Assembly: GCA_038888155.1 (NCBI GenBank)
Contig: JAWAJB010000008.1
Coordinates: 1-29,778, forward strand
Direction: 5' to 3'
Source of the DNA: Desulfurococcaceae archaeon
GTDB taxonomy: Archaea > Thermoproteota > Thermoprotei_A > Sulfolobales > Desulfurococcaceae
DNA length: 29,778 nucleotides
The notes beneath the pieces were generated by a model, which was given only the letters and a program-made list of their open reading frames with translations, was not told the DNA's origin and did not search any database. Below, piece after piece: positions 1 through 20,135 of this stretch (the stretch's first letter is position 1; each line of letters starts with the position of its first letter). The translations under genes and the position numbers were made by a program.

Positions 1-403
1 TGTAGGATATTACCAGGTCCTCTTTACCTGAAGGGCATGATGAAATATAAAACGGAAGGGGATACTCAACAGAGGTCACCTTATTTCTTCCAATATATAA
101 TGTAAATCCTTCAATTCGTAAAATATATTTTTTATTATCTATTTTTATAATTTTAAAAATAAAATTCTTGTTAAGCTCTAAACGTTGTTCTATTTCTATA
201 ACAGAAGTTGAAAATTGTCCAATATTGCACGCGCGTCTCACGGTTGAAAGTATCGCAGTAATAATCTGATTAGCCGTAGCATCAACAACCGAAAGAGTAG
301 CTATGTTTCGTTCCATCATAATGATGTGTATAGAATATGTAGTGATCATAGCTACTGCAAGTATTGTTACCAAAACTAGAAGCAATTGAGATGGTATCTC
401 CAT
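1..403 (-). CDS. Pilin-like protein, 3' end runs off the window (not in the ORF track)
   Basis: Hand-translated from ATG at 403: MEIPSQLLLVLVTILAVAMITTYSIHIIMMERNIATLSVVDATANQIITAILSTVRRAC..., open to base 1. N-terminal hydrophobic helix as in the neighbouring pilin-like genes. AAAAATTTATCA box about 30 nt upstream. Confidence 0.7.
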   Translation of the reverse strand, partial: MEIPSQLLLVLVTILAVAMITTYSIHIIMMERNIATLSVVDATANQIITAILSTVRRACNIGQFSTSVIEIEQRLELNKNFIFKIIKIDNKKYILRIEGFTLYIGRNKVTSVEYPLPFYISSCPSGKEDLVISY

Positions 404-652
404 GGATCTCGAGATATATCACCAACACGATGTGATAAATTTTTTGATACAATTGGTGCGTAGACAGTATGCTTAGACTCTAAGTCGGTTGATAGAGTAG
501 GGATCGAATATCAACTACTACAGGCTAGAGCATCTAAAAGTTTATGAATTTTTAATAATTTTTAAACGCATTACGGACCCAGGGGAGGTGCAGTGGCGTT
601 TTCCTAAATCTGCTATCGTATTGCAACATTTACGTTACTTTCATAAAGTTCA

Positions 653-1183
653 CTAACTACGAGTTGTAATAGCGGCTTCAATGGTACAAAATGCCTTACA
701 ATAGAGGGATATCACATGGGAACCAGGTGGAACAACTAATGGTACAAATGTTATATATTTACGTTCAGAAGTAATTGATACAAAGTACTTAAGAATAAGA
801 GTATTCTTCTCAATCTTAACTTCAATTTCAAGAAAGTCACATTTTGTTCTACTTTTTAGTACAGTTTCAATATACTCTTCACTCAACGATTTTAAGTCAA
901 TACCAATGACACTTACGTAATTTTCTTGTAAATGCATGTATGAACCTGGTGGCAAGAATACGAGCGCTCTAGCCCCACCGTAACCGCTGCAGCATGAGTT
1001 GATGATTGCATCATGAACAGAGATTATACTTTCAAGCGGAGCGCTGCCGGCTGAGTAATAATTTCTAATATATCTGTTTAGAATAGAAAACGATAAAAAC
1101 ATTATTAATATGAAAATAGAAATAAAAATTACTGTCGAAACCGTTATCGAACCTTTGCTTCCCTTTAGTTGCCTAGGACACAC
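653..1183 (-). CDS. Pilin-like protein with class III signal peptide
   Basis: KGSKG/SITVSTVIFISIFILIMFLSF gives a basic leader, a Gly cleavage site and a hydrophobic helix. Likely start is GTG at 1183, overlapping the upstream TAG, rather than 1228. Confidence 0.7.
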   Translation of the reverse strand: MCPRQLKGSKGSITVSTVIFISIFILIMFLSFSILNRYIRNYYSAGSAPLESIISVHDAIINSCCSGYGGARALVFLPPGSYMHLQENYVSVIGIDLKSLSEEYIETVLKSRTKCDFLEIEVKIEKNTLILKYFVSITSERKYITFVPLVVPPGSHVISLYCKAFCTIEAAITTRS

Positions 1184-1953
1184 TAGGGTGCGGTAACATC
1201 TCTTACAGCAACTTCTCCTCTCCACCATACCGATGCACCATCATCATCAATTACTCTCACCAGAAAAACCAATAATCCCGTATCATCCCTTCCGCTAACA
1301 AGGTATTTTGGCTCGATTCCAACGTCAATTATGTACTGGTTTTGAGCCATATTTTCAGGGAGCAAGTAAACATCACTTATTTTTTTGTATAAATTATTTT
1401 CTAAAAGGTACACTTGAACTTTCACATAATTAGATGAAAAGCCTTTTAAGCTAAAATTAATACTAAGAATTTTAAAAGTAGATGTTTCCTTTATTTCAAT
1501 TTTATTAACATAAATAAAAATATTGCGTTTAAAATTAACTTGAAGTTTATATTCATCTCTAGTAATCGAAGCGATAATATTATAGTAATTGTTATTATCT
1601 TCAAAGTGTATATTTTTTGTTAATGTTATCCTAATTTGATATAATTTCTCTAGATAAAGAATTGTATATTTGATACATTCGTCGAAATAAGTTTGAGCAT
1701 TTAGATTTACATCTTCCGAATTAGCCGACTTAATTAATTGTTGATTTATAAGAATATTATTCCATTTTTTATCAGTAGCATATGCAAAACATCCTTTAAT
1801 GGTTTCATTTAGTGATAAGATTGCAACCTCCAACGCTGTAGTTTGAAACATGCGAGGCGTTATGGTTAATGAAGTAAATGCGATTACGAAGGTGATAAAA
1901 ATCGCCAAGAGAGATACGATCAGGGTTTGAGCTCGTCGCATCACATTAGTCAC
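1183..1953 (-). CDS. Pilin-like protein with class III signal peptide
   Basis: MRRA/QTLIVSLLAIFITFVIAF fits a prepilin-type leader. Overlaps both neighbours in the pilus operon. Confidence 0.7.
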   Translation of the reverse strand: MTNVMRRAQTLIVSLLAIFITFVIAFTSLTITPRMFQTTALEVAILSLNETIKGCFAYATDKKWNNILINQQLIKSANSEDVNLNAQTYFDECIKYTILYLEKLYQIRITLTKNIHFEDNNNYYNIIASITRDEYKLQVNFKRNIFIYVNKIEIKETSTFKILSINFSLKGFSSNYVKVQVYLLENNLYKKISDVYLLPENMAQNQYIIDVGIEPKYLVSGRDDTGLLVFLVRVIDDDGASVWWRGEVAVRDVTAP

Positions 1954-2380
1954 CTGAAATTGAAATAACTACTATTCTCGGTTCAAAGTAGCCATTACAA
2001 CCACTAAGTACTGCGAAGCTTGATGCTGAACTATACGAGTTAAACCCGCCACTGGCAAATGCAAAAAGCTCTGTTAAATCGCTAGCACGTAGCACGGCTA
2101 CCTTATACCCACGCCCCGGTGGAGTAAAAGCCTCTACTGCTACCCTCAAAGTCTCTCCATCAACAGTGCCGCCCTGTGAATGGTAAACTGTCTTGCATAG
2201 AACACCGCGACTCAATAATGTTCGAAGAATTGTATTCGCTTCCTCCTCGAGAAGAGGACGAGTTAGTTGCGTAGGTAGGAGGAGTATAAGCCGTAGCACC
2301 AGAGTTAGCAAAAGCACTGCTGTAATACCAGCTAGAGCTGCTTCAAGCAGCCTGACTTGCCCGCCTCTCTTCACTCCCAT
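1946..2380 (-). CDS. Minor pilin-like protein
   Basis: MGVKRGG/QVRLLEAALAGITAVLLL: basic leader, GQ site, Glu near the start of the hydrophobic helix. Confidence 0.75.
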   Translation of the reverse strand: MGVKRGGQVRLLEAALAGITAVLLLTLVLRLILLLPTQLTRPLLEEEANTILRTLLSRGVLCKTVYHSQGGTVDGETLRVAVEAFTPPGRGYKVAVLRASDLTELFAFASGGFNSYSSASSFAVLSGCNGYFEPRIVVISISGD

Positions 2381-3249
2381 ACCACCACCTCGATAAGCAC
2401 TACTACGTCATTAACTTTAGCTAAAGCGGTAACGCGGTAAAAAAGAACGTTGTCAGGCAACTTTTCCCTAAATAATACTAATGGTTCGTACAGAAATGGA
2501 TAGATGAAACTTTTTTTGCCGCAAACAATGGCGTAGGGGGGCCTGAGCAAATTACTCTTGATGAGTAAGTCTAGTGAACTTCCAAGGTTTTCCGCTTGAA
2601 GGACTTGTGAATAAGGGGTTAGATAACATGAGCTATTGAACCTGATTTTTTTATCTTCTTCAAAAATTAGCGTCGATAGGCAGATCTCGCCTTTTTCAAA
2701 GTGTATGATGTAGCAGCATTTAGAATCGATAGATGTTTGAAGGGAATCCAGATTAGAGGTAATTTCGAAGCCTAGCGCGTAGATTGAGTCTGCTGTCGCA
2801 ATAATTATTCTATCGTTAGGTGAAGACGTGAGTAGACCTTTTGCCTTAACTAGCGTAGGTAAGTTCGCTGAGGAGAAATTGACTATATAGTAAGTAACCT
2901 CTGGTTGTAATTTGTATGCTCTTTCAGTGATTTTATACAGAACATTAGGGAAAGATATAGTGATTTTCGTCTGGATTACTGCAGTATTCCCTTCTAAAAC
3001 ATTTTTATGAACATATTCATGTAAATTATTTTCCAAGAATGTTTTCATAGATTGTCGATCGTTCAGAAGCGAGGGATTCATCTCTAGTAGTAGCGCTGCA
3101 AGCTGCGAAATGGTCTCGCCCTTCGTCCTTAATCGTTCTTGGCGAGCTTCAAGTACTCTCGCATGCAATGTGGTTCGTACTCCATGGATGAAGATGGCGA
3201 GCACTAGGATAAAGCTCGTCAGGGCAATAAGGGTTTCAACCGTAGACAT
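2371..3249 (-). CDS. Pilin-like protein without a basic leader
   Basis: MSTVETLIALTSFILVLAIF: Glu at position 5 then a hydrophobic helix. Directly downstream of the platform gene. Confidence 0.6.
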   Translation of the reverse strand: MSTVETLIALTSFILVLAIFIHGVRTTLHARVLEARQERLRTKGETISQLAALLLEMNPSLLNDRQSMKTFLENNLHEYVHKNVLEGNTAVIQTKITISFPNVLYKITERAYKLQPEVTYYIVNFSSANLPTLVKAKGLLTSSPNDRIIIATADSIYALGFEITSNLDSLQTSIDSKCCYIIHFEKGEICLSTLIFEEDKKIRFNSSCYLTPYSQVLQAENLGSSLDLLIKSNLLRPPYAIVCGKKSFIYPFLYEPLVLFREKLPDNVLFYRVTALAKVNDVVVLIEVVVWE

Positions 3250-3258
3250 GCAATCCCC

Positions 3259-4980
3259 CTAAAGCACGAGGAACAGTAGCAGGATAGCCGTCATTGACAA
3301 CAGCATATCTATAATCACATAGACGAAGCCTCCTGCCAGCGTTCCATCTGTCATTTTACCCGTCATCAATCCCATTAAAATCATTGTTACAACACTCCCT
3401 GTGATAACGGTATCAACAAGTTGGGGGAGCATTTTTGGCGTTATGAGCTGTACGCCCAAACTGCCCATGAGCGTTGGGAAAGATGATGCTGCGGCATAGA
3501 ACCCTTCTGCCATCATGGCGATAGGCTCTAGCACCTGTCTTACGAGCATAGAAGTTATGCCGATCACGAGTACCGCAGTGATTAATCCAAAAATCTTCAG
3601 CGGCATAACCGACGAGCGAGCTATTCTCAATGAGTCAATAATCTCCCTTGTAACTTCAGCCACTTCGTCAAACACCTCGGGCTTTGCTCCCATCAGATCG
3701 GCTTCAACCATAAGAGTCAAACTCATCCTGCAGTACCACGAAACCTCTCTCATAACTGATTGAACCGCCTCCTCGAAGGTTCTTCCTGCCTCTAAAGCGA
3801 GAGCAATCTTCTTTATAACCTTATCTAACGCTGAACCGTAACTCCTTGTGTTTGACAGCGTGATTATTGCTAGCGATGGGGTGCTGCCTTTCTTTACCTC
3901 CTCAGCTACGTCTCTAACAAAGCTGGGCAAGGCGTAATCGATTGCTGTAAGGCGTCTCTGATCGAAGTGGTAGCGAAAGGCAGCGGGAGCGCACGTTGCT
4001 ATCGCAGCTGCTGCGATAGCAACTCCGGTCCATGGAAGGCCGCTTATCACTTCAGGCCTAGCACTAATAAGACCAAAATACCACGGTGCATATACTGCTA
4101 CAAAAACAGCCGCACCTACAGGTAGGCTGTAGGCAATCAATCGGTAGTACTTATTGTACTTGACGGGTGTCTTAGGATACATCAAGTCGATTAAGTACAC
4201 AAGCGCTAGACCGATAAGCGGGTTTACGAAAAATGAGTAGAAAATAGATTGCAGAGCTAGCTCTTCTGAAGCGAAGAGCGCGAACATCGTGTAGAGCATC
4301 ATAGGTAGTACGCCGTAAGCTATCAGTATTACATCAGCTACAAAGCTCATCCTACTAGACAAGGTTTTGTAGTTCTCTCGAACAGCGTTAAAGATGCTTC
4401 TCATCTTTTCCCGCAATACAGCGTAAATGTCGCCTCCCCGCCTCTCGATGCTTGCGCTTGAGAGCAGTAGATCCGATATTAACTGCGAGGAGACGCGCCT
4501 GCCCTCAAACTCCATAGCCTCAAGCTCGTCAACAACAAAAAGAACCCTAATTCGCGATATACGCTCAGCGATTTTGGAGAACTCTGTGAAAAGCTCCTTA
4601 TACTTCATCCTCAACCTATCGATTGCGATGTGCGGCGCAACGCCGTTAGCAGCGTACGTCGTTAGCAAAGCCATCACGTAGAGAAGTTCTCTTTCTGCTC
4701 CTCGCATATGCTCTGCTGCTCTAAAGTATGGCTCAAACAGCAAAAACAAACCAATAATGAGAGGGGCAGGAATGAGGTACGCTAAGTACCGTAACTGCTC
4801 GAGTGGGATAATGGGCTCTAAGATACCGAGCGAGAAAACAGCAACGACAAGTGAGAGAGTAGCAGAGGCTGCAGCAAGCAGTAAAAAGTTATTTAACGCC
4901 TCTCTCACGAACTCCTTTGGTGTCTTTCTTATTCCAGAAAGATAAATGTATTTTTCTAGAAAATCTTCTAAGAATTTCAT
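3259..4980 (-). CDS. Type IV pilus/T2SS membrane platform protein (TadC/PilC/ArlJ-like, two T2SSF domains)
   Basis: Two T2SSF-like cytoplasmic domains (ERELLYVMALLTTYAANG; IDYALPSFVRDVAEEVKKG) separated by multiple TM helices. Overlaps the ATPase stop by 4 nt. Confidence 0.9.
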   Translation of the reverse strand: MKFLEDFLEKYIYLSGIRKTPKEFVREALNNFLLLAAASATLSLVVAVFSLGILEPIIPLEQLRYLAYLIPAPLIIGLFLLFEPYFRAAEHMRGAERELLYVMALLTTYAANGVAPHIAIDRLRMKYKELFTEFSKIAERISRIRVLFVVDELEAMEFEGRRVSSQLISDLLLSSASIERRGGDIYAVLREKMRSIFNAVRENYKTLSSRMSFVADVILIAYGVLPMMLYTMFALFASEELALQSIFYSFFVNPLIGLALVYLIDLMYPKTPVKYNKYYRLIAYSLPVGAAVFVAVYAPWYFGLISARPEVISGLPWTGVAIAAAAIATCAPAAFRYHFDQRRLTAIDYALPSFVRDVAEEVKKGSTPSLAIITLSNTRSYGSALDKVIKKIALALEAGRTFEEAVQSVMREVSWYCRMSLTLMVEADLMGAKPEVFDEVAEVTREIIDSLRIARSSVMPLKIFGLITAVLVIGITSMLVRQVLEPIAMMAEGFYAAASSFPTLMGSLGVQLITPKMLPQLVDTVITGSVVTMILMGLMTGKMTDGTLAGGFVYVIIDMLLSMTAILLLFLVL

Positions 4981-6725
4981 TTATTATCACCTCTAATTTT
5001 GAATAACTTGCGCGGTTTACGCTGCCTCTTCGCTTTAACGATCATGCCAGGTTGAGGAATACTTTGTTTTAAGTTTACAATTTTTATATCTTGTTTCATT
5101 TTTTTAATTTCTACAATTTTAATATATGGTTTTTCTTTGCGCTGGACGTCCATAGGTGTTTCCAGTTCTTTATAGAAGAATAATGGATCTCTATAGAATT
5201 TCTCGAATAAGTTTATTAAAATATTTAATTTGGTATAACTCTGATCATTTTTAGCTTTTTCTAAAAGCCATCTTAGAAACTCTATTCTTCTCTTATATTC
5301 GTTAATTAATTCGTTTTCATTATGTATTTTATCACTGATGTTAATTATCTTTGCGGCTGATCTGGTTTTCGCGAGCTCTTCGGGAGGCACGGATTCGTAA
5401 GTATCGTTAGAAGGATTATAGCGAAAAAGTACTCTGAATACTGGTTTTCCGTCCACTAGTTCGAAGTCCGCGACTTCTCTGATGCGCCTAACTCTCTTTC
5501 CATCTTTCGTATAGACAGCGATGTACACAAGGCCGTGCAAGCTGTTAAGCGACGCTATTTCGATGCCCAAGTCCTTTAACCTTACCAGGGCTGAAGTGAA
5601 ATCATCGGCATGAATCGTAGTGATGCCACCGTGGCCTGATGAGATCTGCTGGAACCAAACCTTTGCCTCTTCCCCTCGTATCTCGTTCACTATTAGGTAC
5701 TCTACCTGATATCTTAGCATCTCCTTAACGAGGGCGAAAAGGTCGATAGAGCCTTTACCGTCTATAGAGTACGACTCTCTCGTGAACATGCGCTGCCAAT
5801 TCTGCTTCTTGACGGGCAGATTAAACTCGGGAACATCCTCTACGGTTCCCACGCGCTTATCAGGAGGAATGAAGCCACAGAGAGAGTTTGCCAAACTTGT
5901 TTTTCCTGTGCCCATACCTCCGACAATCAGTATAGGGAGCTTATGCTCAACTAGCAGCCACAGCCAGGCCCCTATCTCCGGAGTAAGCGTCCCTGAGAGC
6001 ATGTGCCTCGTAATTGTCCAAGGCTCGCTCGGGAATTTCCTAATGACAAAGCTACTGTGCTCACTGATTTCACTCATAAATGTGCAAGCAAGCCTATGCC
6101 CCCCAGGCAGTCGTGCGTTATCGATCCTAGGATTAGCCTTACTAATGCTCTTCCCAGCTTTATTCGCGAGCTTCATAACTAGCTTATCCAGCTCCTCCTC
6201 TGTGAACACGAGATTCGTTTCTAAGCGCCCCAGCTCGCTATGCAAGACCGTAACTGGCCTGTAAGGCCCGGTGCACTCAATATTCTCGAGGCTTGGGTCT
6301 CGCATCAGCGGATCTAGGGCACCAAATCGGTCAAATGCGAGTTCTCTGATAATTAAGTACTGAAGCTCAGGGCGCCTCAACCCCCCATCCTCCAGGTACT
6401 TAATCAGGGCTTCCTCTGTGGGTACACCCTCTAGTACGTAAATTAACTCCATTGCACGCTTCTCTAATTCACGTAGCTCACCTTCGGTAACTGATGGATC
6501 ACATACAATATAGAGACGACGAGGAGAAGTTATCTCCTCTCCGATGATGATGTTGACAAATCTGTCGATGTTGTAACTACGAATAACCCGTATTTTTCGT
6601 ACATCCTCAAACTTCCATACCTTTATCTTCACTTCGGGAAAGGCGTCGGCGCCCTCGCGCCCTTTCACCCTCTCACGAGAGCTGCTCGAGAAAGGTTCTT
6701 TTAAGCCAAATAAACCCATACACAT
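4977..6725 (-). CDS. Type II/IV secretion ATPase (VirB11/PilB/ArlI family)
   Basis: Walker A GGMGTGKT, Asp box TVEDVPE, Walker B YLIVNEIRG, His box GHGGITTIHA, plus LDPLMRDPSLENI and FVIRKF motifs. Confidence 0.95.
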   Translation of the reverse strand: MCMGLFGLKEPFSSSSRERVKGREGADAFPEVKIKVWKFEDVRKIRVIRSYNIDRFVNIIIGEEITSPRRLYIVCDPSVTEGELRELEKRAMELIYVLEGVPTEEALIKYLEDGGLRRPELQYLIIRELAFDRFGALDPLMRDPSLENIECTGPYRPVTVLHSELGRLETNLVFTEEELDKLVMKLANKAGKSISKANPRIDNARLPGGHRLACTFMSEISEHSSFVIRKFPSEPWTITRHMLSGTLTPEIGAWLWLLVEHKLPILIVGGMGTGKTSLANSLCGFIPPDKRVGTVEDVPEFNLPVKKQNWQRMFTRESYSIDGKGSIDLFALVKEMLRYQVEYLIVNEIRGEEAKVWFQQISSGHGGITTIHADDFTSALVRLKDLGIEIASLNSLHGLVYIAVYTKDGKRVRRIREVADFELVDGKPVFRVLFRYNPSNDTYESVPPEELAKTRSAAKIINISDKIHNENELINEYKRRIEFLRWLLEKAKNDQSYTKLNILINLFEKFYRDPLFFYKELETPMDVQRKEKPYIKIVEIKKMKQDIKIVNLKQSIPQPGMIVKAKRQRKPRKLFKIRGDNK

Positions 6726-6743: not shown

Positions 6744-6832
6744 TAAAATTCTTTTTGCAGTACTTGCATCGAAGATTGTTCTATAGTGGCAGCAGTGACT
6801 GCAGAAGCGCGGAAACAGGCAAAAGTTTAAAA
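6744..6832. promoter_or_regulatory. Divergent BRE/TATA-like promoters for the ATPase operon (-) and the major pilin (+)
   Basis: Minus-strand AAAAGAATTTTAA at about 6744-6756 precedes the ATPase start. Plus-strand AAAAGTTTAAAA at 6821-6832 lies about 22 nt before GTG 6854. Confidence 0.55.
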
Positions 6833-6853
6833 GTAAAAAATGCTAGAATTAAC

Positions 6854-7273
6854 GTGCGCAGAAAAGGCATAAGTGGAGTGGTTGTGGCGGTTCTCTTGAC
6901 GATTGTTGGGATCGCCGCCGTTCTGATGTTCTGGGGCGTGATCAGCGGCCTCATCGGGGGAAGACGATTACAAGGAACCATAGACGCGGCTCAGATTATA
7001 GTCACAGAAACCGGGGCAAGGCTCGCCGTCACGGTCTCAAACACGGGATCCATAGATTTCCGCATATCATCCATCAAGTTGGATGAATCATCGGTCGATA
7101 CTTCGCAGTGCACTCCGAACCCGGCGAACCAGCTGGTATCTTCTGGCGGAGCCCTATCAATCGTGTGTAGAGTTACTGCAGAAGCTGGCAAAACGTATAT
7201 ACTCACGTTGGAAATCGAAGGTTCTGGGAGAAAAAGCGCATTAACCGAATCGGTCTACGCTAGAAGAGGTTAA
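6854..7273 (+). CDS. Probable major archaeal type IV pilin (139 aa)
   Basis: From GTG 6854: MRRKG/ISGVVVAVLLTIVGIAAVLMFW, a canonical class III signal peptide, followed by a small beta domain (LAVTVSNTGS). Has its own promoter-like box. Confidence 0.88.
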   Translation: MRRKGISGVVVAVLLTIVGIAAVLMFWGVISGLIGGRRLQGTIDAAQIIVTETGARLAVTVSNTGSIDFRISSIKLDESSVDTSQCTPNPANQLVSSGGALSIVCRVTAEAGKTYILTLEIEGSGRKSALTESVYARRG

Positions 7274-7372: not shown

Positions 7373-10321
7373 GTGGACCCAATTAAAGTAGCAGCTTTAA
7401 TCTTTTCTGTCCTTTTGATAACAACTAGCTTTGCCTCCATACCTTTACTCAAAGCGGAAACACCTTCAACTAACCAGCAAATCAGCACTAACATAAACCA
7501 GCAAACACTCGCATACTACGTCGTAGGAGTAACCTCCAACAGAATTCCCCTCAAACTTATCCCCTTACCTAGCGTAAGCATGAACCATGGTGTAAAAATC
7601 GGATCCAACGAAGCAGATATAATTGTTATGGCGATACCAGCTACGCAGAAAAGCAAGAACTTTGATTCGCTGAAATTTATAAGCGGACTCCTAACAAAAG
7701 TCGTAGCACGTCAGGAAAGCCTTAGTGGCCAGCTTATCGCCGAACTATACAACTCATTGTATAACCAAGTAATAGAGATGGGAGCGAAACAAGCATTCCT
7801 ACCATATGAAAATCTAACCTTTACATTCGTAGTAATTATTTGGATAAAAAGCAAGAGCCTCGGCGAATTCATCGCATCTATCGGAGCAGGTGCACTGAAA
7901 TCGGTATCAGACAGCCTGATACTCGTATCATTCTCCCTAACAGAGAACGCCCTTCAGGAAATAAGATCAGGCATAAGCGAAAAAATCAACGAAATAGCAA
8001 ATAAATTACTTGAACAAATAAATAATTATTTAACCAATATCGAGAATGAATTATTAAATTATTTAAATAATAAAATAGATAATTTAAATTGCATCGAGAC
8101 TTGTTCTAAAATAGAAGAGACCAATCAAACAGTGTGCACATACACTCTTCCCTCGATACAAATTCAGCCAATCATAACTGCAACTTTTAACAAAGGGAAA
8201 ATCAGTATAAAAATTAACGTAGTAGATAATATAAATAAAGTTTACGAAAGCAATGATATAGCTTTTGTAAGCAAAGATTTCTTTGTTATAAATGCTGAAA
8301 ATATAATTAATTCTCAATCTTATGATAAAGATCTCATTGATGATGGAGAAGTAAACTCTCTAATTCAAGTTCTTGGAGGGTATATCTATGATTCAATTTT
8401 AAGTTTTAAGACTGAAAAAACTATTTTACCTTTGAAAAGTTTCACAATAGATGCAGGAGGTAGTTTTGACAGTTGTGGAACAGCTAAGGAAAACATGAAG
8501 GCGATAGCGAAAGTAGTAGCTGGGAACGTAATTTCATATATTAACGAAAAAGTAGATGAGAGTATCAAATCTATTACTGATCAGTTAAACCAGTTTACAG
8601 TTAATGTTTTTAATGAACTATCAATAACTTTAAATAAAATTAGAGTTAATCTTCAATATGCTGCTAGTGAAGCTGTAAACTATGCGGCGGAGTTTCTTGA
8701 AACAACAGTATACACTGCAGTATCGCAGTTAGTTACTAAAACAAATCCTGCAGTTTTTGCTGTATATACTATCGCTGAGGGAATTTCTCAGGCTCTGCAA
8801 ACCTGTGTTGACAAAATTAGCGTAACCGTCGAACAGCTGCCAAGCGATGACATAGATCAGAGCATACTGGTAGTTCACGAAGAGCAAGTTAACAAACGTG
8901 TGGTGAGATTACCGGAGCCAAACGACAAGATAACAGCTGAACAAAGCGTGTCTCTCGGTGAAAAAATACTCTCAGCGGCAAAAGGCTTCGCTGCGGGCGT
9001 TCTAGGGGCAATATTTGGTCCAGCGGCTCGGAAGGCGATAAACGTCATACCCTCAGTCTTCGTGGTTAATATGCAGCTAAAGAGTGGTAATAAGTGGTTA
9101 ATAGCTCCCTCGTGGCCGGGTATATACGCCATTAACTTAGCAATTACCCCACATACTTATGCAGAATGGTTGAGTAAACTACCTAGCAGTTTAACGAGTA
9201 TATTCTTTAAGGATATTGATAAAAACAAAAATAGTTTAGTCGAAAAACTTATGCAAAAGTTTAAAGTGTCGATTGAGAACGTGAGATTGGACGACAAAGA
9301 GTTCGGTGCTAAAATGATTGTACCCTACCTTGTTTTACCGCCTTACTTTATCGTAGAGAGTGTTAGAATCGAAAATAGCATAGTTAGCATGAATTTCACA
9401 GCTATATATGATTTTTCAGCTCTAATTAGAGTTTCTATTCGAAATCAAATAAACGAACTTCGAAAGATCGTAAGTAAAGGTACAGAAGTTATTGATAAAT
9501 TGTATGGAATTGTGAAGAATACAATAAAAGATTTAGTTAATAGAATATTTGATATTGTATTGAATTATTTGAATTCTAAGCTAACAAGCGAATACATTAA
9601 AAAATTTATAAATGATCTATATAATTATTTAATTGAATACATCTTCAACACGTTTATAGATCCGATATTGGAACAATTATTCGAAAAATTTATCAAAAAA
9701 CAAGCTATCAAATTCGTTGAGTTTATAGATAAAATACTAACTATCGCCGAACAACAACTAGAGTATTTCGATAGATTCATAGCTTTAACGTTATCTGTGA
9801 TTAGAATCGACATCGTTAATTCCGATGTTAACGTTGCTCTAGCCGTGCCATCCTTAGGCTACGTTAGCAGCCGTTCTATTGATCAGTTCGGGAAAGTGAA
9901 AGTGCGGTTCTCTCAGAGTGCGCTCTATAGGTTTTTGGGTAATTGCATCGGCGCAATACCGCTCTACATGACCGCCGGACCAGATGGCAAGGTCAGCTAC
10001 TTCATAGCTCCTTGGGCCACTTACAGTCTCGAACCATTGGTCACTCCGCTAATTCCTGTAGTTCGCGTAATGAATGATAAGCTAAACCTTGTCTTCTTAA
10101 CGCCCTTCAATAACAGAATTGTAGATGTTCGATACACGTTCGTCGTCGATGGAGCATCAGTGCAAGAAGTCCCTATGAGTACTTTACGGAAAGCAGCAAT
10201 AATCGGAGTGAAGGTAAATAGCGTGAGGATCGATGATACGAGAGGTGTTGGCGCGGTCCTTCCATTGCCAGTAGAGTTTCCGGTCGCAGTAAATCCATCG
10301 GTCCTTGTTGGGGAGTCTTAG
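7373..10321 (+). CDS. Large secreted protein (982 aa) with long amphipathic helices, function unknown
   Basis: Sec-type signal MDPIKVAALIFSVLLITTSFA and no C-terminal anchor. AAAACATATATA box at 7337-7348. Confidence 0.8.
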   Translation: MDPIKVAALIFSVLLITTSFASIPLLKAETPSTNQQISTNINQQTLAYYVVGVTSNRIPLKLIPLPSVSMNHGVKIGSNEADIIVMAIPATQKSKNFDSLKFISGLLTKVVARQESLSGQLIAELYNSLYNQVIEMGAKQAFLPYENLTFTFVVIIWIKSKSLGEFIASIGAGALKSVSDSLILVSFSLTENALQEIRSGISEKINEIANKLLEQINNYLTNIENELLNYLNNKIDNLNCIETCSKIEETNQTVCTYTLPSIQIQPIITATFNKGKISIKINVVDNINKVYESNDIAFVSKDFFVINAENIINSQSYDKDLIDDGEVNSLIQVLGGYIYDSILSFKTEKTILPLKSFTIDAGGSFDSCGTAKENMKAIAKVVAGNVISYINEKVDESIKSITDQLNQFTVNVFNELSITLNKIRVNLQYAASEAVNYAAEFLETTVYTAVSQLVTKTNPAVFAVYTIAEGISQALQTCVDKISVTVEQLPSDDIDQSILVVHEEQVNKRVVRLPEPNDKITAEQSVSLGEKILSAAKGFAAGVLGAIFGPAARKAINVIPSVFVVNMQLKSGNKWLIAPSWPGIYAINLAITPHTYAEWLSKLPSSLTSIFFKDIDKNKNSLVEKLMQKFKVSIENVRLDDKEFGAKMIVPYLVLPPYFIVESVRIENSIVSMNFTAIYDFSALIRVSIRNQINELRKIVSKGTEVIDKLYGIVKNTIKDLVNRIFDIVLNYLNSKLTSEYIKKFINDLYNYLIEYIFNTFIDPILEQLFEKFIKKQAIKFVEFIDKILTIAEQQLEYFDRFIALTLSVIRIDIVNSDVNVALAVPSLGYVSSRSIDQFGKVKVRFSQSALYRFLGNCIGAIPLYMTAGPDGKVSYFIAPWATYSLEPLVTPLIPVVRVMNDKLNLVFLTPFNNRIVDVRYTFVVDGASVQEVPMSTLRKAAIIGVKVNSVRIDDTRGVGAVLPLPVEFPVAVNPSVLVGES

Positions 10322-12234: not shown

Positions 12235-13221
12235 GTGTCGCTTCCCAGGATTATATCGATTCGAAGATATGGTGTTGCCCTATCGCCCACAATCATCAGA
12301 GTAAAAACTTATCCTGTCGCAACCGCCGAGCTCCTAACTAAAGAGCTAGCGATACAGTACATGAGAGCTCTTAGATTAACTAGAAGAAAAGTTAACCAAT
12401 TAATAATCGATTTCCTTGACGGAAAGGTATCAGACTATGAATTAAGAAAGGAGTATTTAAGACTGGCACAAGAAGCCAATGATATAGCACAAGCAGTCTT
12501 AGCGTTAATAAATTTTAGCTATTTGATAGAAGATATTGAGGATTCTATCAAACTTATAGAAAGAATAATAATATATTTGTGTAGGAATAAGAATGGATTA
12601 AATGATTTTAGCCGAATATTGCTTAGAAATATCATTAATAATAACTTAACAAAAATATATAATTACAAGAAAACTTTAAAACAAATTTATAAATCTGTGA
12701 AAGAGAAATTAGTAGAGCTTCAAATATTTATGAATATTTTTGGAAAACAGTTAAAAATTTCATTCGGGCCTGCTTATCTTCAGAGGTTGGATGAAATCGC
12801 AGCGTTATATGTGCAATACAGTTGGGCATTGAACGAGCTAAGAGCTATTCGATTATCGATGAACATAGGGTTAATTGATTTCCAGGACGAACTATTGAAG
12901 ATGATGAACGAGATAGCAATGCTAAGACAACTAAGGGCTCAGCTTCGCCTTGGTGAATTGAACAAAGATGAATACATTAGACAGGTAGAGAAGAGTCTTG
13001 AATCAATTCAAGAAATCGAATTAAGTATCACTGAGAAAATAGAAAAATTTAAAGTAATGAAAACAGATATATCAAGAAATGAAGATTATTTGCAGAAAAT
13101 TCTAGGAAGAAAAACTTTTCTAAAACTAAAAAGGATGATGGATATTTCTGAGTTATCGATACAAAAGATAAATAATATTCTTTCAAAAAGTAAAGTGATG
13201 GCTACTCTGGAAGAAGATTAG
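12235..13221 (+). CDS. All-helical coiled-coil protein with two Gly-turn hairpins
   Basis: 328 aa, no TM segment. Hairpin motifs DFLDGKVSDYELRKEYLRL and QLRLGELNKDEYIRQVE. Confidence 0.75.
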   Translation: MSLPRIISIRRYGVALSPTIIRVKTYPVATAELLTKELAIQYMRALRLTRRKVNQLIIDFLDGKVSDYELRKEYLRLAQEANDIAQAVLALINFSYLIEDIEDSIKLIERIIIYLCRNKNGLNDFSRILLRNIINNNLTKIYNYKKTLKQIYKSVKEKLVELQIFMNIFGKQLKISFGPAYLQRLDEIAALYVQYSWALNELRAIRLSMNIGLIDFQDELLKMMNEIAMLRQLRAQLRLGELNKDEYIRQVEKSLESIQEIELSITEKIEKFKVMKTDISRNEDYLQKILGRKTFLKLKRMMDISELSIQKINNILSKSKVMATLEED

Positions 13222-14192: not shown

Positions 14193-15611
14193 TTAATCCC
14201 CTCTCAACTTAAACAGCAAGAAAATTAAGAGAAGCACTTGTATCATGATTATTGCAAGTAGTATTACCAATGGCGTTAATTCAATCGTGCTCTTTACCTC
14301 GTAAATCGGAGGTGAAGGCATAATAATGGATATTGCTAAATCACCTAGCGGGGAAATATCCAATAAGAGGTTAAGTTCGCATGCGTTAATTGTGATGTTG
14401 ACCGGGATTCGTGGGAAATGTGTAATCACATATGTTATACCCTGCTTCTGAATGGGCACCACAGCTCCGTTGATATAAACTTTAGGGGGACAGTGCTCGT
14501 CTGTCCGCAAAATTATGTCAGAGAAATTAAGGCGAACAGTGTAATAATAATTCGAGTCAATTGTTATGTTTCTCTCCCATACCTTTAGTACAAGACCAGA
14601 AAAATTGTAAAAAATAGATATAGAATAATTTCCTTCAGTGAGACAAACTATCGGTTTAGATGATTTTACTTTAGATGAATTAACTATTAGAAATACATTT
14701 TCATCAGCGTTTTCTAAACTCATTCTTAACGTGTATATTCTGGGGCGACAGGTGTAAAAGATATTCTCTAACCTCTCATTACACGTCGCGTGTGGGCTAT
14801 CCTCTATGAAGTACTCGACCGTGCAGGATTCTCGCCTAGGTTGTATCCAGCGGTTTGGTGATATTAACGCAAGCTGGGGGGGTTTACTGCTTAACGTAAA
14901 GCTGCCGCATGTTAAGCGGACAGAAAGGTTGCATGAAGGGTCTACACCTAAGACGTGGGTTAAGTTAATCATTTGTGGCACCACAAGTAACGGTAATTCG
15001 AGAGGTTCTCCACCAGTAAGATCAGCTAGATTAGCGCTTGCTAGGAGAGATTCGCCGTAGTATACTTCCATGATCCATGGATAGGTGTGGTTTTCGTCGC
15101 TAGCCACCGGTAGATACAAGCCTGAGCCTCCTAAGACGAACCTGAGCGGATCGTCGCTATCACCTAGGTGAATCGTGATCGATAATGAGGCAAACAATGG
15201 GTCGTTAATCACCGAGGCTACTTTCGTGAGGTGTGGAGTAACCACGTACTCTGATGTTAAGTTGTAGAACTTAATATCCAAGTTGGATAGATTTTTTAGC
15301 TTTAAGTAAACTACAAAGAAATTTTCTTTTGTAGAATTAACCGTAAAACCTAAGCTCCAGTTGCGGTCATAGAAGTAATATTCTGCTGACAAGTTGGCGA
15401 GCATCGTTCCATTAAAAAAGTTCATGAAGTGGGAGGCGTTAAATACGATCCAACCTATTTTAAAGAAAAGATTATTTAGTACTTCAAGCGGGAGAGAATT
15501 GCCATCTATGTCGAGAAGCTGAACTGTAACATTGTTCTCCGGAATCGCATAGACGAGCGTAAGTAGAGACGAGAGCAGAGCCATCCCGATCGCGAGAAGG
15601 ATCCTACGCAT
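14193..15611 (-). CDS. Type I membrane-anchored surface glycoprotein
   Basis: Signal peptide, beta-rich ectodomain with about 17 N-x-S/T sequons and several Cys, C-terminal TM helix and a short KLRGD tail. Confidence 0.8.
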   Translation of the reverse strand: MRRILLAIGMALLSSLLTLVYAIPENNVTVQLLDIDGNSLPLEVLNNLFFKIGWIVFNASHFMNFFNGTMLANLSAEYYFYDRNWSLGFTVNSTKENFFVVYLKLKNLSNLDIKFYNLTSEYVVTPHLTKVASVINDPLFASLSITIHLGDSDDPLRFVLGGSGLYLPVASDENHTYPWIMEVYYGESLLASANLADLTGGEPLELPLLVVPQMINLTHVLGVDPSCNLSVRLTCGSFTLSSKPPQLALISPNRWIQPRRESCTVEYFIEDSPHATCNERLENIFYTCRPRIYTLRMSLENADENVFLIVNSSKVKSSKPIVCLTEGNYSISIFYNFSGLVLKVWERNITIDSNYYYTVRLNFSDIILRTDEHCPPKVYINGAVVPIQKQGITYVITHFPRIPVNITINACELNLLLDISPLGDLAISIIMPSPPIYEVKSTIELTPLVILLAIIMIQVLLLIFLLFKLRGD

Positions 15612-16058: not shown

Positions 16059-16526
16059 TCACCTTCCCCTTTTAATGACTTCTTTGAAGTGTACTCTTTC
16101 ATAGCTATTCCCTCTGATAGTGAAAATATCGTACTCCCCTGTTAATGGGTCCATTACCAACGCCACATGGTAAGATTGTGAAAAGCATCTTCGATGGGTC
16201 TCTAGGTCTACGCTGGAAAGGAAGCAGCCATATCCAGGGTGACTATGAGCCCATCCCACTACAAGCAATTTGCGTTTTTCAAGAATTCCTGAAATTTCCC
16301 CCAAGCTACCTTCAAGAGGCACAACAAACGTCTCACTTGCGTCAGCCTTCAGTGGGAGATAGTCGATCACTTCGACCCAATCCTTTCCCTTGTACACATA
16401 CCTGTCCCCCAAGAGAAAACCTATGGCCTCTTTCGGCAAAGTCCTAACAAAGTGCTTGAAGATTTTTTTCAGGACCTTGTAATGGATGTACACGTCGGCA
16501 ATTTCAATTTCTGTCTCATTTTTCAT
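16059..16526 (-). CDS. JAMM/MPN+ metalloprotease (Rpn11-like deubiquitinase)
   Basis: PKEAIGFLLG (catalytic Glu) and VVGWAHSHPGYGCFLSSVD (HxH-x7-S-x2-D), close to the eukaryotic Rpn11 motif VVGWYHSHPGFGCWLSxVD. Confidence 0.95.
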   Translation of the reverse strand: MKNETEIEIADVYIHYKVLKKIFKHFVRTLPKEAIGFLLGDRYVYKGKDWVEVIDYLPLKADASETFVVPLEGSLGEISGILEKRKLLVVGWAHSHPGYGCFLSSVDLETHRRCFSQSYHVALVMDPLTGEYDIFTIRGNSYERVHFKEVIKRGR

Positions 16527-17109
16527 CGTTTCTCCCCCCTCTTTTTCTTACAATTTTTGGAGGCGGATTTAGCCTGAAGTACTCAGCTGCTCGCATGCAA
16601 ATAGGTGGGTTGTGTATCGGGTCATCTACGTCCGGATTTTCTATCAGGAGCTTCACGCCCTCTACAACGTTTAGCAAGCTGAGCGTTGTGGTCCATTTTA
16701 CTAAGGCACGCCAGCAGATAACCCCAGTACCGCCGTAATCCTTCCCGGGAGCGATGTTCGGGTGAAATATCGGTGTAATCCACACTATTCTAATCGGAGC
16801 ACCCAATTTCCTCTCCGAGGGGAAGGGATAGTTGCGCAACACGTAGAGATCAAAAGTATGATGATTTAACGGAACTATTTTCTCGTTAGCATCTAAAACG
16901 TATCCTTGCGCTTCTACTTCGATTCTGTATTTCATGAATGCGGGTACTTTTTCTAAACCATAGACAGTTGGAACTTCTATCTCTTTAAATTCACGTTTTT
17001 TAGATATATCATAGAATTTTTGTTTTTCTAAAATCTTAGAAGTTGTTTTTTCGAGTTCCTTTTCTTCATTGTTAAGGCGATTTATAAGCGCTTCTAAAGT
17101 CAGCATCAC
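16516..17109 (-). CDS. Ubiquitin-conjugating enzyme E2 (UBC fold)
   Basis: NYPF...PIRIVWITPIFHPNI...GVICW...W...LLIENPDVDDP: HPN motif, catalytic Cys, downstream Trp and the NP-x-x-x-D-P motif. Start overlaps the Ubl stop. Confidence 0.93.
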   Translation of the reverse strand: MMLTLEALINRLNNEEKELEKTTSKILEKQKFYDISKKREFKEIEVPTVYGLEKVPAFMKYRIEVEAQGYVLDANEKIVPLNHHTFDLYVLRNYPFPSERKLGAPIRIVWITPIFHPNIAPGKDYGGTGVICWRALVKWTTTLSLLNVVEGVKLLIENPDVDDPIHNPPICMRAAEYFRLNPPPKIVRKRGGRNDEK

Positions 17110-17390
17110 TACCCGCCTACAGGTCGCGCGATGAGCTGAAGGCGGTCACCGTCCCTTATACCCAGCTCAGCTAACGTTTTTTCAAAGTGAGCTGTACCGA
17201 ACTCTTTTGCGCCTCCAGGGAAGACAAGCCTATACCCTAAATCAGGATTTTCCAAGTCTATCTTGAGCGCGTTGGCAACCGTTCTGAAAACATCTCCTAG
17301 TCGTGTAGCAGGAGAGACCTCAAGTTCTACCTCATCGCCGGTTAAAACGGAGATAATGGTAATCCGCCATGTCCCTCTTGCAGAGGCCAC
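17109..17390 (-). CDS. Ubiquitin-like protein (beta-grasp) with a free C-terminal GG
   Basis: VLTGDEVELEVSP, YRLVF and KTLAELGIRDGDRLQLIARPVGG-stop align by eye with ubiquitin TLTGKTITLEVEP, QRLIF and [23 protein letters not shown]. Confidence 0.92.
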   Translation of the reverse strand: MASARGTWRITIISVLTGDEVELEVSPATRLGDVFRTVANALKIDLENPDLGYRLVFPGGAKEFGTAHFEKTLAELGIRDGDRLQLIARPVGG

Positions 17391-17428: not shown

Positions 17429-17441
17429 GCTGGAATTTGAG

Positions 17442-17798
17442 CTAAGAAACCGGAGTTGAGTCAGTGCACTGTGTATCACAACGCCGAAGGTTAAGAATCC
17501 GTTGGGCGGTCCTCAGCTTATCCCTGTATTGGAGGTGTAAACGAGCGTAAGTTAAGTAATCTATGTGGCCTTCCGCAAACAACTCGAATAACATATGGAG
17601 GCGGTTGCTGTAATTTTCGATCTCTCTTTCGACTAAATGGGCTAGATCACGTACAGCTACTATCTTCGGGCTGACTGTTGAAGTACTATAAACCTTACAT
17701 TTCCAGAATTCTTTCAAGCAAAGGCTAGAATCAGGCTTCTTTCGTGCCAACATGCATGATTTTTCCAAGAATTTTTTCCTAAAAAACGGGCATGTCAT
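17442..17798 (-). CDS. Small Cys4 metal-binding domain fused to a helical hairpin
   Basis: CPFF...C...C...CKVY at the N-terminus, then LFELFAEGHIDYLTYARLHLQY. GAAAACTTTATAG box about 23 nt upstream. Confidence 0.7.
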   Translation of the reverse strand: MTCPFFRKKFLEKSCMLARKKPDSSLCLKEFWKCKVYSTSTVSPKIVAVRDLAHLVEREIENYSNRLHMLFELFAEGHIDYLTYARLHLQYRDKLRTAQRILNLRRCDTQCTDSTPVS

Positions 17799-17846
17799 GA
17801 TAAACTTATATTTTTCACAACTATAAAGTTTTCGGCAATCGTGTGA

Positions 17847-20135
17847 TTATCCGCTGTACATTAGTTGAGTTGCCTCCGCTATTGTCTTAAGGGCGTTCTC
17901 TATATTATCTATCTCCTCTATTACGCGTCTAAGCTTGGTTTCGTATTCGTCTCTCAATCTTGAGTATGCTCTTGCGCTTGCCCTATCTTTATACTGTTCT
18001 AACTTGCTCAAATATTCATTGAGTTTTTTCCTCTCCTCCTCAAGCTTATTTTTTTCGCTATAAAGCTTAGTAGCGAGATTAGACATTTCATCGTATAGTC
18101 TGATCCTGAGAGCGTTCAGTTTTTTCAGCGCGCTTTCAGGATCTCCTTTAAGGTAAATGCTTCTGCATGCACTAATCTCTTCTCCGCTGCTTTCAAGAAA
18201 GTGCATCATTTCGCGGACACCAGTCACACTGTAAAGGGGTCTGAGTGCAGAGAGCATTCCGTCCACACTGCTGGATATCACCCTGCATAGGTTGACAAAC
18301 TCGCAGGCAGCTCGAACCACCTGTTCTGGAAGAATTCCCGAAAGTTTCTCTGTCAACTCGTCGCAGCTCGTTCCTGCCGAGATAGCTCTTTCTATGCCTC
18401 TCCATACGTTTGTCTTCATTCGGACGTAAAAGACTCCCGCAATGCCACCAAGGATTATGCTGCTAATAGTTGTCACAATGAGCAGCACGTTTGTAGCTGC
18501 TCTTACGTTCACCGTTACGGGATCAGTGACGCATTTATCGTAGGGTCCCGAAGGGGGGACCGCTACGCTGAACCTATGGCCTCCAGCCCCCCTCACGATT
18601 AGCCTTAGGGTGTCGGTGGGAGGTCTAAGGATCGTCTCTGAGCGACCATCGGGGAGAGTGTGACTGACGTTTAAGGATGGCAACATAGTTAGAACATCGT
18701 TTGTTACATCACTTCCATTTAGCGTATCCAGTATACGAAGCTCGAGCAATATTTCTCCCCCCTCCTCTACCTCCCTTTGAAGCGCCCTTAATTGGCAGCT
18801 GATGGGTCTAGCTTGCACGCAAAGCTGTCCGACGCGGACCTTTTTAGAAGGGTAGTATCCTTGAGGGGCGATTTCCACGTAGACATCGTAGCAACCGGGT
18901 ACGCGCAACTGAATCGAGACTAAGGTACGACGCTCAGTAGAATCAAAGCGTACACTATCGATCGCCCTGTCTCCATCGCCCACCACCACTACACCGCTTA
19001 GGCCACCACTTCGATCAACCTCTACAGAGACTTCAGCCCGCTCTAATGCATAAACCAACCCTGTCCGTAACGTAGCCACTAGATTAAAGTCACGAAAGCC
19101 TACCGTGAGAACTTCAAGGTCGCTCCCCCTCATGCATATCACGATTACAGCGGGAACATCTGTGTAACGGGTGGCTGGAATCAAGGCCAGTACACTGTCA
19201 GCGAACTCAAGGAGTGGTCCAAACCAGCTACCTTCGATTCTCTCGCGGAAGAATAGGCATCCGTCATCCGTCAGAGCAAAATACCCCTGGCTTGCTACTA
19301 TGAAAGCTAAACCAGCGCGTAGCGCACTCACACCCCCCCTCTCACTAATCATTGTGCCATCTCCTAGCACGAGGTGCTCCACGCCATCGACCTTTACAAC
19401 GCCTATTGGCCGTGAAGGTTTTATGTTGCCTAACGATTTGATAAATAAGGTTTCGGGGTTAAGCAGCAGAACACTCTTGTCCGCCAGGATCATGTAGATG
19501 ACTCGCTCGCCCTCCATTGAAAAAACAATGTCTGCGGTCAAGCTGTAACTCAAGCTAGTCCAGTTTTTCCCTGTAAAGACAGCTATCGTGAAACTGTCTA
19601 GATCTAACATAATGATGTGCTTCCACGTGTTAAGGGGTCTCGCGTTAAAAGTGAGGGCAATAGTTTTCCCTTCAAAGATGTCCAGCAGCATAGGTTTACC
19701 GCAGTCGATAAGGACGAACTTACTGTAGACCCTACGAATACTAAGACCTTGACAAGTGCACAAGGTTCTGGAGCCCCCGCGGAGGCTGTATAACTCCAGA
19801 GAATCCTCTCTCTGCAGCAGTAAATCCTCCTCAAGAACGTAGATAGCCTTTAGACCCCGAGGGTCTATTTTCCCAGTCCGCAACCCCTCTGATGTCACCA
19901 CGAGAACGGTTCCATCTCTGCTGACAGCAGCAAAGGATCTAGTGAAGATATTAAATTCGTGGAGAAAGACGTCTTTGAACCTGTAAACGCTAAGAGGCTC
20001 TACGCGCTGGCCCATCGCAACAGCAGAATGTAGAAGGCATGCTACGACTAAAACTAGAAGGTAAATTAATCCTATACGTTTGGAAGCCCTTTTCTCCGAA
20101 ACTGCTGGTATGAAGAAAAGCTTATTAGGAAGCAC
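17847..20135 (-). CDS. Receptor-like single-pass membrane protein (762 aa)
   Basis: Signal peptide, short beta-strand repeats (propeller-like), Ig-like segments, TM helix VLLIVTTISSIILGGIAGVFYV and a cytoplasmic helical/coiled-coil tail of about 190 aa. Confidence 0.78.
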   Translation of the reverse strand: MLPNKLFFIPAVSEKRASKRIGLIYLLVLVVACLLHSAVAMGQRVEPLSVYRFKDVFLHEFNIFTRSFAAVSRDGTVLVVTSEGLRTGKIDPRGLKAIYVLEEDLLLQREDSLELYSLRGGSRTLCTCQGLSIRRVYSKFVLIDCGKPMLLDIFEGKTIALTFNARPLNTWKHIIMLDLDSFTIAVFTGKNWTSLSYSLTADIVFSMEGERVIYMILADKSVLLLNPETLFIKSLGNIKPSRPIGVVKVDGVEHLVLGDGTMISERGGVSALRAGLAFIVASQGYFALTDDGCLFFRERIEGSWFGPLLEFADSVLALIPATRYTDVPAVIVICMRGSDLEVLTVGFRDFNLVATLRTGLVYALERAEVSVEVDRSGGLSGVVVVGDGDRAIDSVRFDSTERRTLVSIQLRVPGCYDVYVEIAPQGYYPSKKVRVGQLCVQARPISCQLRALQREVEEGGEILLELRILDTLNGSDVTNDVLTMLPSLNVSHTLPDGRSETILRPPTDTLRLIVRGAGGHRFSVAVPPSGPYDKCVTDPVTVNVRAATNVLLIVTTISSIILGGIAGVFYVRMKTNVWRGIERAISAGTSCDELTEKLSGILPEQVVRAACEFVNLCRVISSSVDGMLSALRPLYSVTGVREMMHFLESSGEEISACRSIYLKGDPESALKKLNALRIRLYDEMSNLATKLYSEKNKLEEERKKLNEYLSKLEQYKDRASARAYSRLRDEYETKLRRVIEEIDNIENALKTIAEATQLMYSG

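Follow-up and report, generated by a model that had tools for sequence, protein, structure and literature searches.

Does an archaeal ubiquitin-type conjugation cascade that is encoded beside a type IV pilus locus act on that pilus? The question arises from a stretch of 29,778 nucleotides (nt), here called the window, which is the entire contig C8 of genome G000, a Desulfurococcaceae archaeon described as a hot-spring dweller. A first reading of this DNA from its letters alone (the sequence-only reading) had placed genes for a ubiquitin-like modifier (Ubl), E1, E2, RING and JAMM proteins, a pilus ATPase and a TadC platform protein in the window, all of which we found where it put them, and had proposed that ubiquitin-like tagging controls the pilus. 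Linkage of the two gene sets and a trait of the ATPase tail support that proposal in part; a single operon and an obligate coupling did not stand. We favor, with a probability of roughly 55%, the reading in which the motor of a complex type IV pilus is controlled, via a shared docking motif, by a conjugation module of the ubiquitin type that is associated with the membrane; that cascade and pilus are functionally coupled is somewhat more probable still. The case is built from an intact cascade, its linkage to pilus genes, the association of a motif with the linked motors, the exchange of that motif for an FHA domain and a RING fusion, as read from sequence comparison.

The genes of the cascade are as follows (aa, amino acids; E, expectation value):

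17109..17390, minus strand: Ubl modifier, 93 aa, ends in GG; YukD match, E 1.4e-5
16516..17109, minus strand: E2 conjugating enzyme, 197 aa, with Cys132 and a C-terminal PKIV motif; UQ_con, E 7e-7
16059..16526, minus strand: JAMM isopeptidase, 155 aa, HxH motif intact; Pfam JAB, E 2e-14
11984..12220, minus strand: small RING protein (C4HC3), 78 aa; Prok-RING_1, E 1e-7, above the cut-off
11091..11990, minus strand: E1 activating enzyme, 299 aa, with Cys201; Pfam ThiF, E 7e-47

Those of the pilus are the following:

2..403, minus strand: minor pilin-like gene truncated by the contig end; N-terminal hydrophobic helix; weak match to its counterpart in locus L103 (hhalign 41.6%, E 3e-4)
653..1228, minus strand: minor pilin-like, 191 aa; one hydrophobic helix; weak match to its L103 counterpart, E 6e-4
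1183..1953, minus strand: minor pilin-like, 256 aa; class III-type motif
1946..2380, minus strand: minor pilin, 144 aa; the family also occurs in ubiquitin-less pilus loci
2371..3249, minus strand: minor pilin-like, 292 aa; N-terminal hydrophobic helix only, no profile match
3259..4980, minus strand: TadC/ArlJ-type platform protein, 573 aa; T2SSF, E 5e-8; UpsF and BasF models below their cut-offs
4977..6725, minus strand: pilus assembly ATPase, 582 aa; T2SSE, E 2e-21; Walker A, Asp box and His box conserved
6854..7273, plus strand: major pilin (PilA type); class III motif; predicted GTG start (6755-7273 in the list of open reading frames)
7373..10321, plus strand: large secreted protein, 982 aa; signal helix; putatively adhesin-like
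10322..11086, minus strand: protein of the pilus locus, 254 aa; N-terminal helix of pilin-like type; no match to its fold

Together, these two clusters form about five transcription units on both strands and not the single joined operon that had been envisaged. The tight minus-strand run from RING through E1 to the gene at 10322-11086 proved exact, with an overlap of 7 nt between RING and E1 and a gap of 4 nt after E1. The direct abutment of this run on the ATPase locus fell away, as the 10322-11086 gene is separated from the ATPase by 3,596 nt that contain two plus-strand genes, those for the major pilin and the 982-aa protein. A plus-strand gene for a 328-aa coiled-coil protein (12235-13221), left unnamed by the sequence-only reading, separates RING from a winged helix-turn-helix (wHTH) gene. 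A scan for sigma-70 promoters and terminators returned hits at chance level, the sigma-70 model being unsuited to archaea. Contigs of RNA run X14, present in 30 of 30 bins, were considered as a sign of transcription and rejected, since they do not show transcription. The deepest RNA-library contig listed in that run (52) lies at window positions 6869-7314, in the pilin region; contig depth cannot rank genes.

The cascade itself is complete. Catalytic motifs are intact in E1, E2, JAMM and RING, and the Ubl is a ubiquitin-family beta-grasp modifier with a C-terminal GG. Its best Pfam match, YukD, scores 26.2 bits, slightly below the cut-off of 27, and its family profile matches ubiquitin and the structure 6fj7 with E about 1e-11 (1.6e-11 for 6fj7). 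The last Gly is invariant (40 of 40) and the preceding Gly occurs in at least 90%. E1 consists of a single ThiF domain, with no ubiquitin-like domain at its C terminus, and has the nucleotide-binding motif, the Zn site and the catalytic Cys; the Cys201 column is conserved in 21 of 21 clade rows among those listed. In E2, H116, P117, N118 and C132 are invariant across 14 of 14 sequences, and all eight zinc ligands are present in RING. Comparison with near-identical strains (L090, L091) gave synonymous-to-replacement codon counts of 3/0 for Ubl, 14/6 for E2 and 14/5 for JAMM (the last against L090); the same comparison gave 10/20 for the 163-aa membrane protein encoded nearby, that is, more replacements. 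Ubl and E2 are fused in six loci (L102, L105, L111, L164, L165, L192) with GG retained at the junction, which implies cleavage by JAMM: the Ubl-GG-E2 fusion product would be a precursor that needs a cut to free both parts.

The neighboring cluster encodes an archaeal type IV pilus. Its ATPase is of the VirB11/FlaI type and adjoins the TadC/ArlJ platform gene, and its major pilin carries a class III signal peptide. The major pilin is the sole pilin-like product that matches solved archaeal pilins (8fk7, E 0.0011; 8tib, E 0.026; 8fjs, E 0.09). Of the seven genes that had been called pilin-like, two (6854-7273 and 1183-1953) have a FlaFind-type class III motif before the hydrophobic helix and the rest lack it. 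The profile of the 1946-2380 product matches L011, L103, L195 and the ubiquitin-less loci L239-L253, several of these rows having helped to build the profile. Homologues of the 982-aa secreted protein occur in pilus loci L099 and L104 and in ubiquitin-less L240. The 10322-11086 product was modeled with a predicted local distance difference test score (pLDDT) of 85 as a hydrophobic N-terminal helix, a second helix and a beta-rich body, and the model found no match among solved structures (best Z score, 3.2). Because its orthologue in L103 (hhalign 94%, E 1.4e-7) sits among pilus genes, between a minor pilin-like gene and a large secreted protein, we place it in the pilus gene set. Positional counterparts in G146/G145, g165 and f28 were rejected as orthologues, all profile comparisons falling under 3%. 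A Pfam scan of the window genes found no prepilin peptidase, and none of the 30 window proteins matched the archaellum families ArlB, ArlH or ArlF/G; the contig stops within the pilin run.

Whether the neighborhood is meaningful depends on how far it recurs. An E2 alignment search yielded 80 genome loci and 67 metagenome loci. A tree of E2 plus JAMM (46 rows) delimited an inner E2 clade of 24 rows with support of 99. Searches of genomes recovered this clade from 4 of the 351 in the class and gave strong matches in 5 of the 401 in a phylum sample, eight genomes in total. In seven of these eight (G000, G146, G145, G026, G477, G507 and G513), ubiquitin genes adjoin those for the pilus motor or platform, and at least five different gene orders occur. 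G146 has the order TadC, six pilin-like genes, E1, Ubl, E2, JAMM, wHTH, RING, pilin, ATPase; in G145, TadC and pilin-like genes lie on the E2 contig; and in G026, wHTH, E1 and ATPase share one strand, with 49 nt from E1 to ATPase. Direct neighbors elsewhere include E1-pilin-Ubl (G507, G513) and pilin-Ubl (L100, L112). No pilus genes were found beside 78 E2 loci from outside this circle of relatives, most of them in Micrarchaeota and Thermoplasmatota and 40 of them flanked by 8 kb or more on each side, and no ATPase or TadC gene lay within 10 kb of 10 Caldiarchaeum-type operons, one of which has pilin-like genes. The separation of the two gene sets in relatives, which the sequence-only reading had named as its chief refuter, was thus not what we observed.

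Tabulation of 38 inner-clade loci detected a pilus-locus gene in 9, and in 8 of the 14 loci of at least 10 kb. The misses among the latter are L092 (which stops before the position of the pilus in L093), L117, L118, L120, L121 and L198; L099, L100, L107 and L112 were scored as "pilin seen" only. In a reverse search, the best three ATPase matches among 400 other genomes were G513, G507 and G477, which are three of the four other genomes in that sample holding the E2 clade. Many linkage rows are close kin, and the independent lineages number about four or five. Linked rows occur in all three inner-E2 subclades, with unlinked rows nested among them; from this pattern, the link would appear either to be old, with several losses on both sides, or to have formed at least twice.

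That a chance neighborhood or an assembly artefact brought the genes together is very improbable. One 22,276-base contig from an independent run, X6, spans window positions 1-20000 unbroken and departs from the window at 56 differences and 7 gaps; the join of ubiquitin and pilus genes is therefore no assembly chimera. The link also recurs in distant lineages and different orders and is absent from the 88 control loci, and we count the artefact as refuted. What speaks for it is the state of the genome bin. G000 measures 2.42 Mb and is 6.4% contaminated, whereas its 16 congeners range from 0.9 to 1.5 Mb and all lack the E2. Its small contigs are mixed in composition, and one flanking gene is present in four copies within the bin. 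A protein 95% identical to the 10322-11086 product is labeled "Thermofilaceae archaeon" by NCBI. The right flank (20153-29778) is syntenic with G571, from another family, at 43-78% identity, and the ubiquitin-pilus block is absent from the 20 kb upstream of that flank in G571. For these reasons, the contig is probably mis-binned in G000 and the block is probably an accessory island. The bin looks like a core of 1.3 Mb to which some 1 Mb of mixed contigs has been added, and other findings from G000 may be mis-assigned.

Such patchy, island-like spread would also fit antiviral defence, with Ubl conjugated to virion proteins, as in bacterial Bil systems, or used to shut down a pilus that serves as virus receptor. 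Transposase-like genes seen by eye near L107 and L117 and weak BilC/JAB model matches of JAMM (E 8e-6) fit this idea. We nevertheless judge it improbable: PADLOC matched only the generic E1 and JAB folds and none of the other 10 of 12 proteins, no defence genes were seen in the window, and the cassette has a RING and fixed membrane partners. The defence role raised by the sequence-only reading thus gained no supporting evidence here. No E2 relative was found in viral contigs, and a viral origin was rejected; plasmid ATPase matches were 28-33% identical among the rows listed.

What could connect the two machines is a short motif. The window ATPase ends in a 68-residue tail with 15 lysines and two copies of [PIV][RK][IVL][IVL], at 535 and 547. 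A strict form, P[RK][IV][IVL], occurs in 64 of 108 distinct E2 tails of the clade and in 0 of 5 canonical E2 tails; adaptors and membrane partners bear it too, with as many as six copies in one locus. The wider form (background rate, 0.0012 per residue) lies after the last conserved helix in the tails of 7 of 7 complete linked ATPases and 2 of 42 unlinked ones. The tail motif was predicted in advance, and the ATPases of five genomes were then fetched: the motif is present in the clade ATPase of G145 and in none of the 10 other complete ATPases, while the clade ATPase of G026 is truncated by the contig end. Motif-bearing linked ATPases fall in two separate branches, one with family f28 and the other with the ubiquitin-less families f25, f49 and f62. 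Monophyly of the ubiquitin-linked ATPases was rejected (approximately unbiased test, P = 1e-114, 27 rows), and we therefore dropped the idea of one dedicated ATPase clade.

The sister ATPases in f28, which come from ubiquitin-less loci, end instead in an FHA domain (E 1e-11 to 3e-9, 3 of 3 scanned), and genes for PP2C and kinase-FHA proteins adjoin them. The ATPase-FHA fusions are located at L239:6714-8993, L240:15077-19901, L242:1760-7642 and L244:14911-17193, with PP2C and Ser/Thr kinase-FHA genes beside TadC. At L248:5786-8176, TadC measures 796 aa and has an extra N-terminal region that looks vWA-like by eye. Such an f28 pilus, putatively controlled by phosphorylation, is not mentioned in the available part of the text of PMC4858521.

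How might such a system work? By analogy with the Caldiarchaeum cascade, which has been reconstituted, E1 (through Cys201) would activate Ubl, E2 (through Cys132) would carry it, RING would stimulate its transfer to a lysine, and JAMM would mature Ubl and remove it. RING may act on a scaffold at the membrane's inner face, to which the wHTH-hairpin protein and further hairpin proteins would contribute. The short motif, a beta strand that E2, E1, the adaptors and the tail of the ATPase have in common, would be a shared docking signal, most likely for Ubl, comparable to a SUMO-interacting motif. Through this motif the motor might be recruited to tagged partners or itself be tagged, and either event could switch the assembly of the pilus or its turnover. 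A phosphorylation module of FHA tail, kinase and PP2C would take that place in the sister pilus clade. Complex prediction of Ubl with ATPase residues 524-566 scored 0.41 against 0.04 for the best control, which lends slight support. Among test pairs, 116 of 157 solved ones and 2 of 215 mismatched ones attained the mark for such predictions, but only 18 of the 157 and both mismatches did so at 0.60 or below; for Ubl and the ATPase tail, the runs agree in at least 0% of contacts and the partner pLDDT is at least 49. Binding of Ubl to the ATPase tail, taken by itself, is a doubtful proposition.

Several observations weigh against regulation of the pilus motor through a shared motif. The ATPase tails were already in view when the wider form of the motif was settled on. 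With a matrix made from E2 tails alone, only three g165 ATPases score high (15-16), and the window ATPase, at 7.2, is level with an unlinked one at 7.3; this strict-matrix test of the tail largely failed for the window, L103 and G146 ATPases. The motif at the N terminus does not discriminate (4 of 7 linked versus 11 of 44 unlinked). The prediction test counts as only half independent, given the close relationship of G145 to G146. In mature pilins, next to nothing lies on the cytoplasmic side where a tag could be attached. Finally, each module also occurs alone, which speaks against obligate coupling: f28 genomes G526, G465, G444 and G367 have the same pilus layout but lack any kind of E2, and their E1 is of MoeB level only; the cassette in G529 lies on a 12.5-kb contig that carries no pilus genes, and in L117, L118, L120 and L121 the loci examined hold the cassette without them.

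The remaining proteins between RING and position 20135 bear on what else the cassette might do:

12235..13221, plus strand: coiled-coil protein, 328 aa; two helical-hairpin motifs and an N-terminal PRII motif; homologues in L092-L099
13202..14191, minus strand: wHTH plus helical hairpins, 329 aa; model pLDDT 90.6; probable E3 scaffold
14193..15611, minus strand: membrane-anchored surface glycoprotein, 472 aa; signal, C-terminal helix and 17 sequons; position conserved in L092-L099
15611..16102, minus strand: single-pass membrane protein, 163 aa, assigned from sequence features and locus comparison
17442..17798, minus strand: Cys-containing protein, 118 aa; one hairpin and one PKIV motif; its place upstream of Ubl is conserved in L090-L099
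17847..20135, minus strand: single-pass membrane protein, 762 aa; large outer part and cytoplasmic coiled coil; conserved in L090 and L092-L094; no Pfam family above cut-off

The wHTH protein accompanies the cassette whether or not pilus genes are present. Among 73 representatives of its family, 6, plus L198, end in a RING-like motif, and this fusion suggests that the 329-aa protein is probably the scaffold of an E3. A fold search with the whole protein gave no distinctive match. Its residues 202-261 resemble the ESCRT-I core (2caz, 2f66, 2p22; Z 8.4-8.5, root-mean-square deviation 2.0-2.9, 57-61 aligned) and CdvA (9s9g; Z 8.2, deviation 5.2, 112 aligned), in both cases tied with unrelated hairpins. 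An Atlas search returned nothing for the 328-aa protein and only wHTH-level matches below 0.9 for the 329-aa protein. One relative of the 328-aa protein matches Pfam CdvA (E 8e-4) and another SHOCT (E 0.006), both below cut-off. Further components appear in related loci: membrane proteins that combine a hairpin with a PCI domain (PCI E 4e-6 to 1e-3 in L103, L107 and L112) and a PRC-barrel-RING fusion (PRC E 1e-7 in L107). The proteins with a PCI-like domain and C-terminal hairpin are encoded near a JAMM gene at L100:808-3367 (four copies), L103:14206-14769, L107:10882-11442 and L112:354-905; pairing of PCI with MPN recalls the lid and COP9 complexes.

These accessory proteins invite another explanation, in which cassette and pilus share an envelope island without direct contact. 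The cassette would tag, sort or turn over its own membrane proteins through an ESCRT-I/II-like adaptor net of hairpin, winged-helix and PCI proteins, and the pilus genes would ride along, both serving one cell-surface programme. We consider this rather unlikely. It accords with the pilus-less cassettes of L117-L121 and G529, where nearly every cassette protein bears the strict motif, with the recurrence of hairpin, PCI and PRC-RING proteins across loci, and with the patchy spread in the class and the G571 flank that lacks the block. It leaves unexplained the ATPase tail motif and its exchange for an FHA domain, as well as the interleaving of pilus and ubiquitin genes in several orders. In addition, the hairpin matches to ESCRT-I and CdvA are the tied ones described above, and reading of the loci brought no gene for ESCRT-III or Vps4 to notice, although no profile search for either was made.

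A more far-reaching version of motor regulation through the shared motif, which we put forward tentatively, is a prokaryotic surface machine under direct ubiquitin control: the motor would have acquired a tail that interacts with Ubl, and a RING ligase of several subunits, bound to the membrane and built on winged-helix and steadiness-box-like hairpins, would tag the motor, platform or surface proteins after a contact signal, interchangeably with FHA/phosphorylation control.

Pilus-less cassettes show further features of their own. Many Ubl-E1-E2-JAMM cassettes of Micrarchaeota and Thermoplasmatota (L013-L089) have the same E2 tail motif, no pilus genes and low-complexity partners that bear two motif copies. 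Those of L115-L121 and L198 include a second, GG-less Ubl-like zinc-ribbon gene and PRC-barrel and zinc-ribbon membrane proteins, with the strict tail motif in nearly every protein. In the window itself, positions 20153-29778 hold a series of genes for proteins of the surface and membrane: an Ig-like one of 1192 aa, an MG2-like one of 406 aa, a multi-pass one of 570 aa and two of DUF1616. This series is syntenic in G571 and L092-L094.

How does the locus compare with known systems? Like the Ub-E2-E1-srfp operon of Caldiarchaeum subterraneum with Rpn11 (Cluster I in PMC5654768), it has a separate GG-ending Ubl, E1, E2, small RING and JAMM. However, its E1 of 299 aa lacks the C-terminal ubiquitin-like domain, the E1s of the ten control operons measure 388-413 aa, and E1 and E2 of the window clade form other branches; with its single ThiF domain, this E1 led us to reject membership in Cluster I or II. 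G477, G507 and G513 hold both Caldiarchaeum-type and window-type cascades. A third archaeal type, Cluster III, set apart from Clusters I and II, likewise has an E1 without the C-terminal ubiquitin-like domain (PMC5654768, Supplementary Note 4), and from this one E1 feature the window clade is likely identical with it. The Cluster III text available makes no link to pili, wHTH-hairpin proteins or membrane partners; "pili" and "pilus" do not occur in the main text of that paper, nor "pilin," "pilus" and "secretion" in two of its supplement files. The cascade thus apparently resembles a published type, and what is new would be only the pilus coupling and the accessory proteins.

On the side of the pilus, clade 4 type IV pili of TACK archaea (PMC4858521) have the same ATPase, TadC, PilA-type major pilin, fast-evolving minor pilins and large adhesin-like protein. 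The main text of that paper does not contain "ubiquitin," and it reports that ArnA/ArnB genes never occur in type IV pilus loci. YukD/EsaB of type VII secretion is likewise a ubiquitin-fold protein encoded with a secretion ATPase; YukD was reported to be not conjugated and without E1, E2 or RING (PMC1779556), whereas the window locus keeps the full cascade and the GG, and its ATPase is of the VirB11/FlaI type. In Asgard archaea, ubiquitin-ESCRT genes and CdvA/steadiness-box proteins likewise bring ubiquitin genes together with winged-helix and helical-hairpin proteins and membrane partners; here, by contrast, the partner machine is a pilus motor, and "pili" does not occur in PMC11188069. In the window, RING and a membrane scaffold set the locus apart from Bil/Bub, with a weak BilC match for JAMM and generic E1-E2 matches for E1. 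The bacterial BilABCD/Bub antiphage systems combine Ubl, E1, E2 and JAB in a patchy cassette. Literature titles and abstract openings, with subscription journals mostly outside coverage, gave no description of a ubiquitin-pilus pairing. The pairing of these two known machines is real and conserved, and apparently undescribed.

The natural substrates of archaeal ubiquitin cascades are stated to be unknown in PMC5654768. This locus offers candidates in the ATPase tail, with its 15 lysines in 68 residues, in TadC and in the membrane proteins of the locus, along with a candidate docking motif and a candidate E3 scaffold. If our reading is correct, an archaeal ubiquitin cascade would have a natural substrate in the pilus, and pilus motors could swap between phosphorylation and ubiquitin control. 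Archaeal membrane ubiquitin signaling would then extend beyond the Asgard ESCRT link, by a path involving neither ESCRT nor the proteasome through which ubiquitin may have come to govern membrane events.

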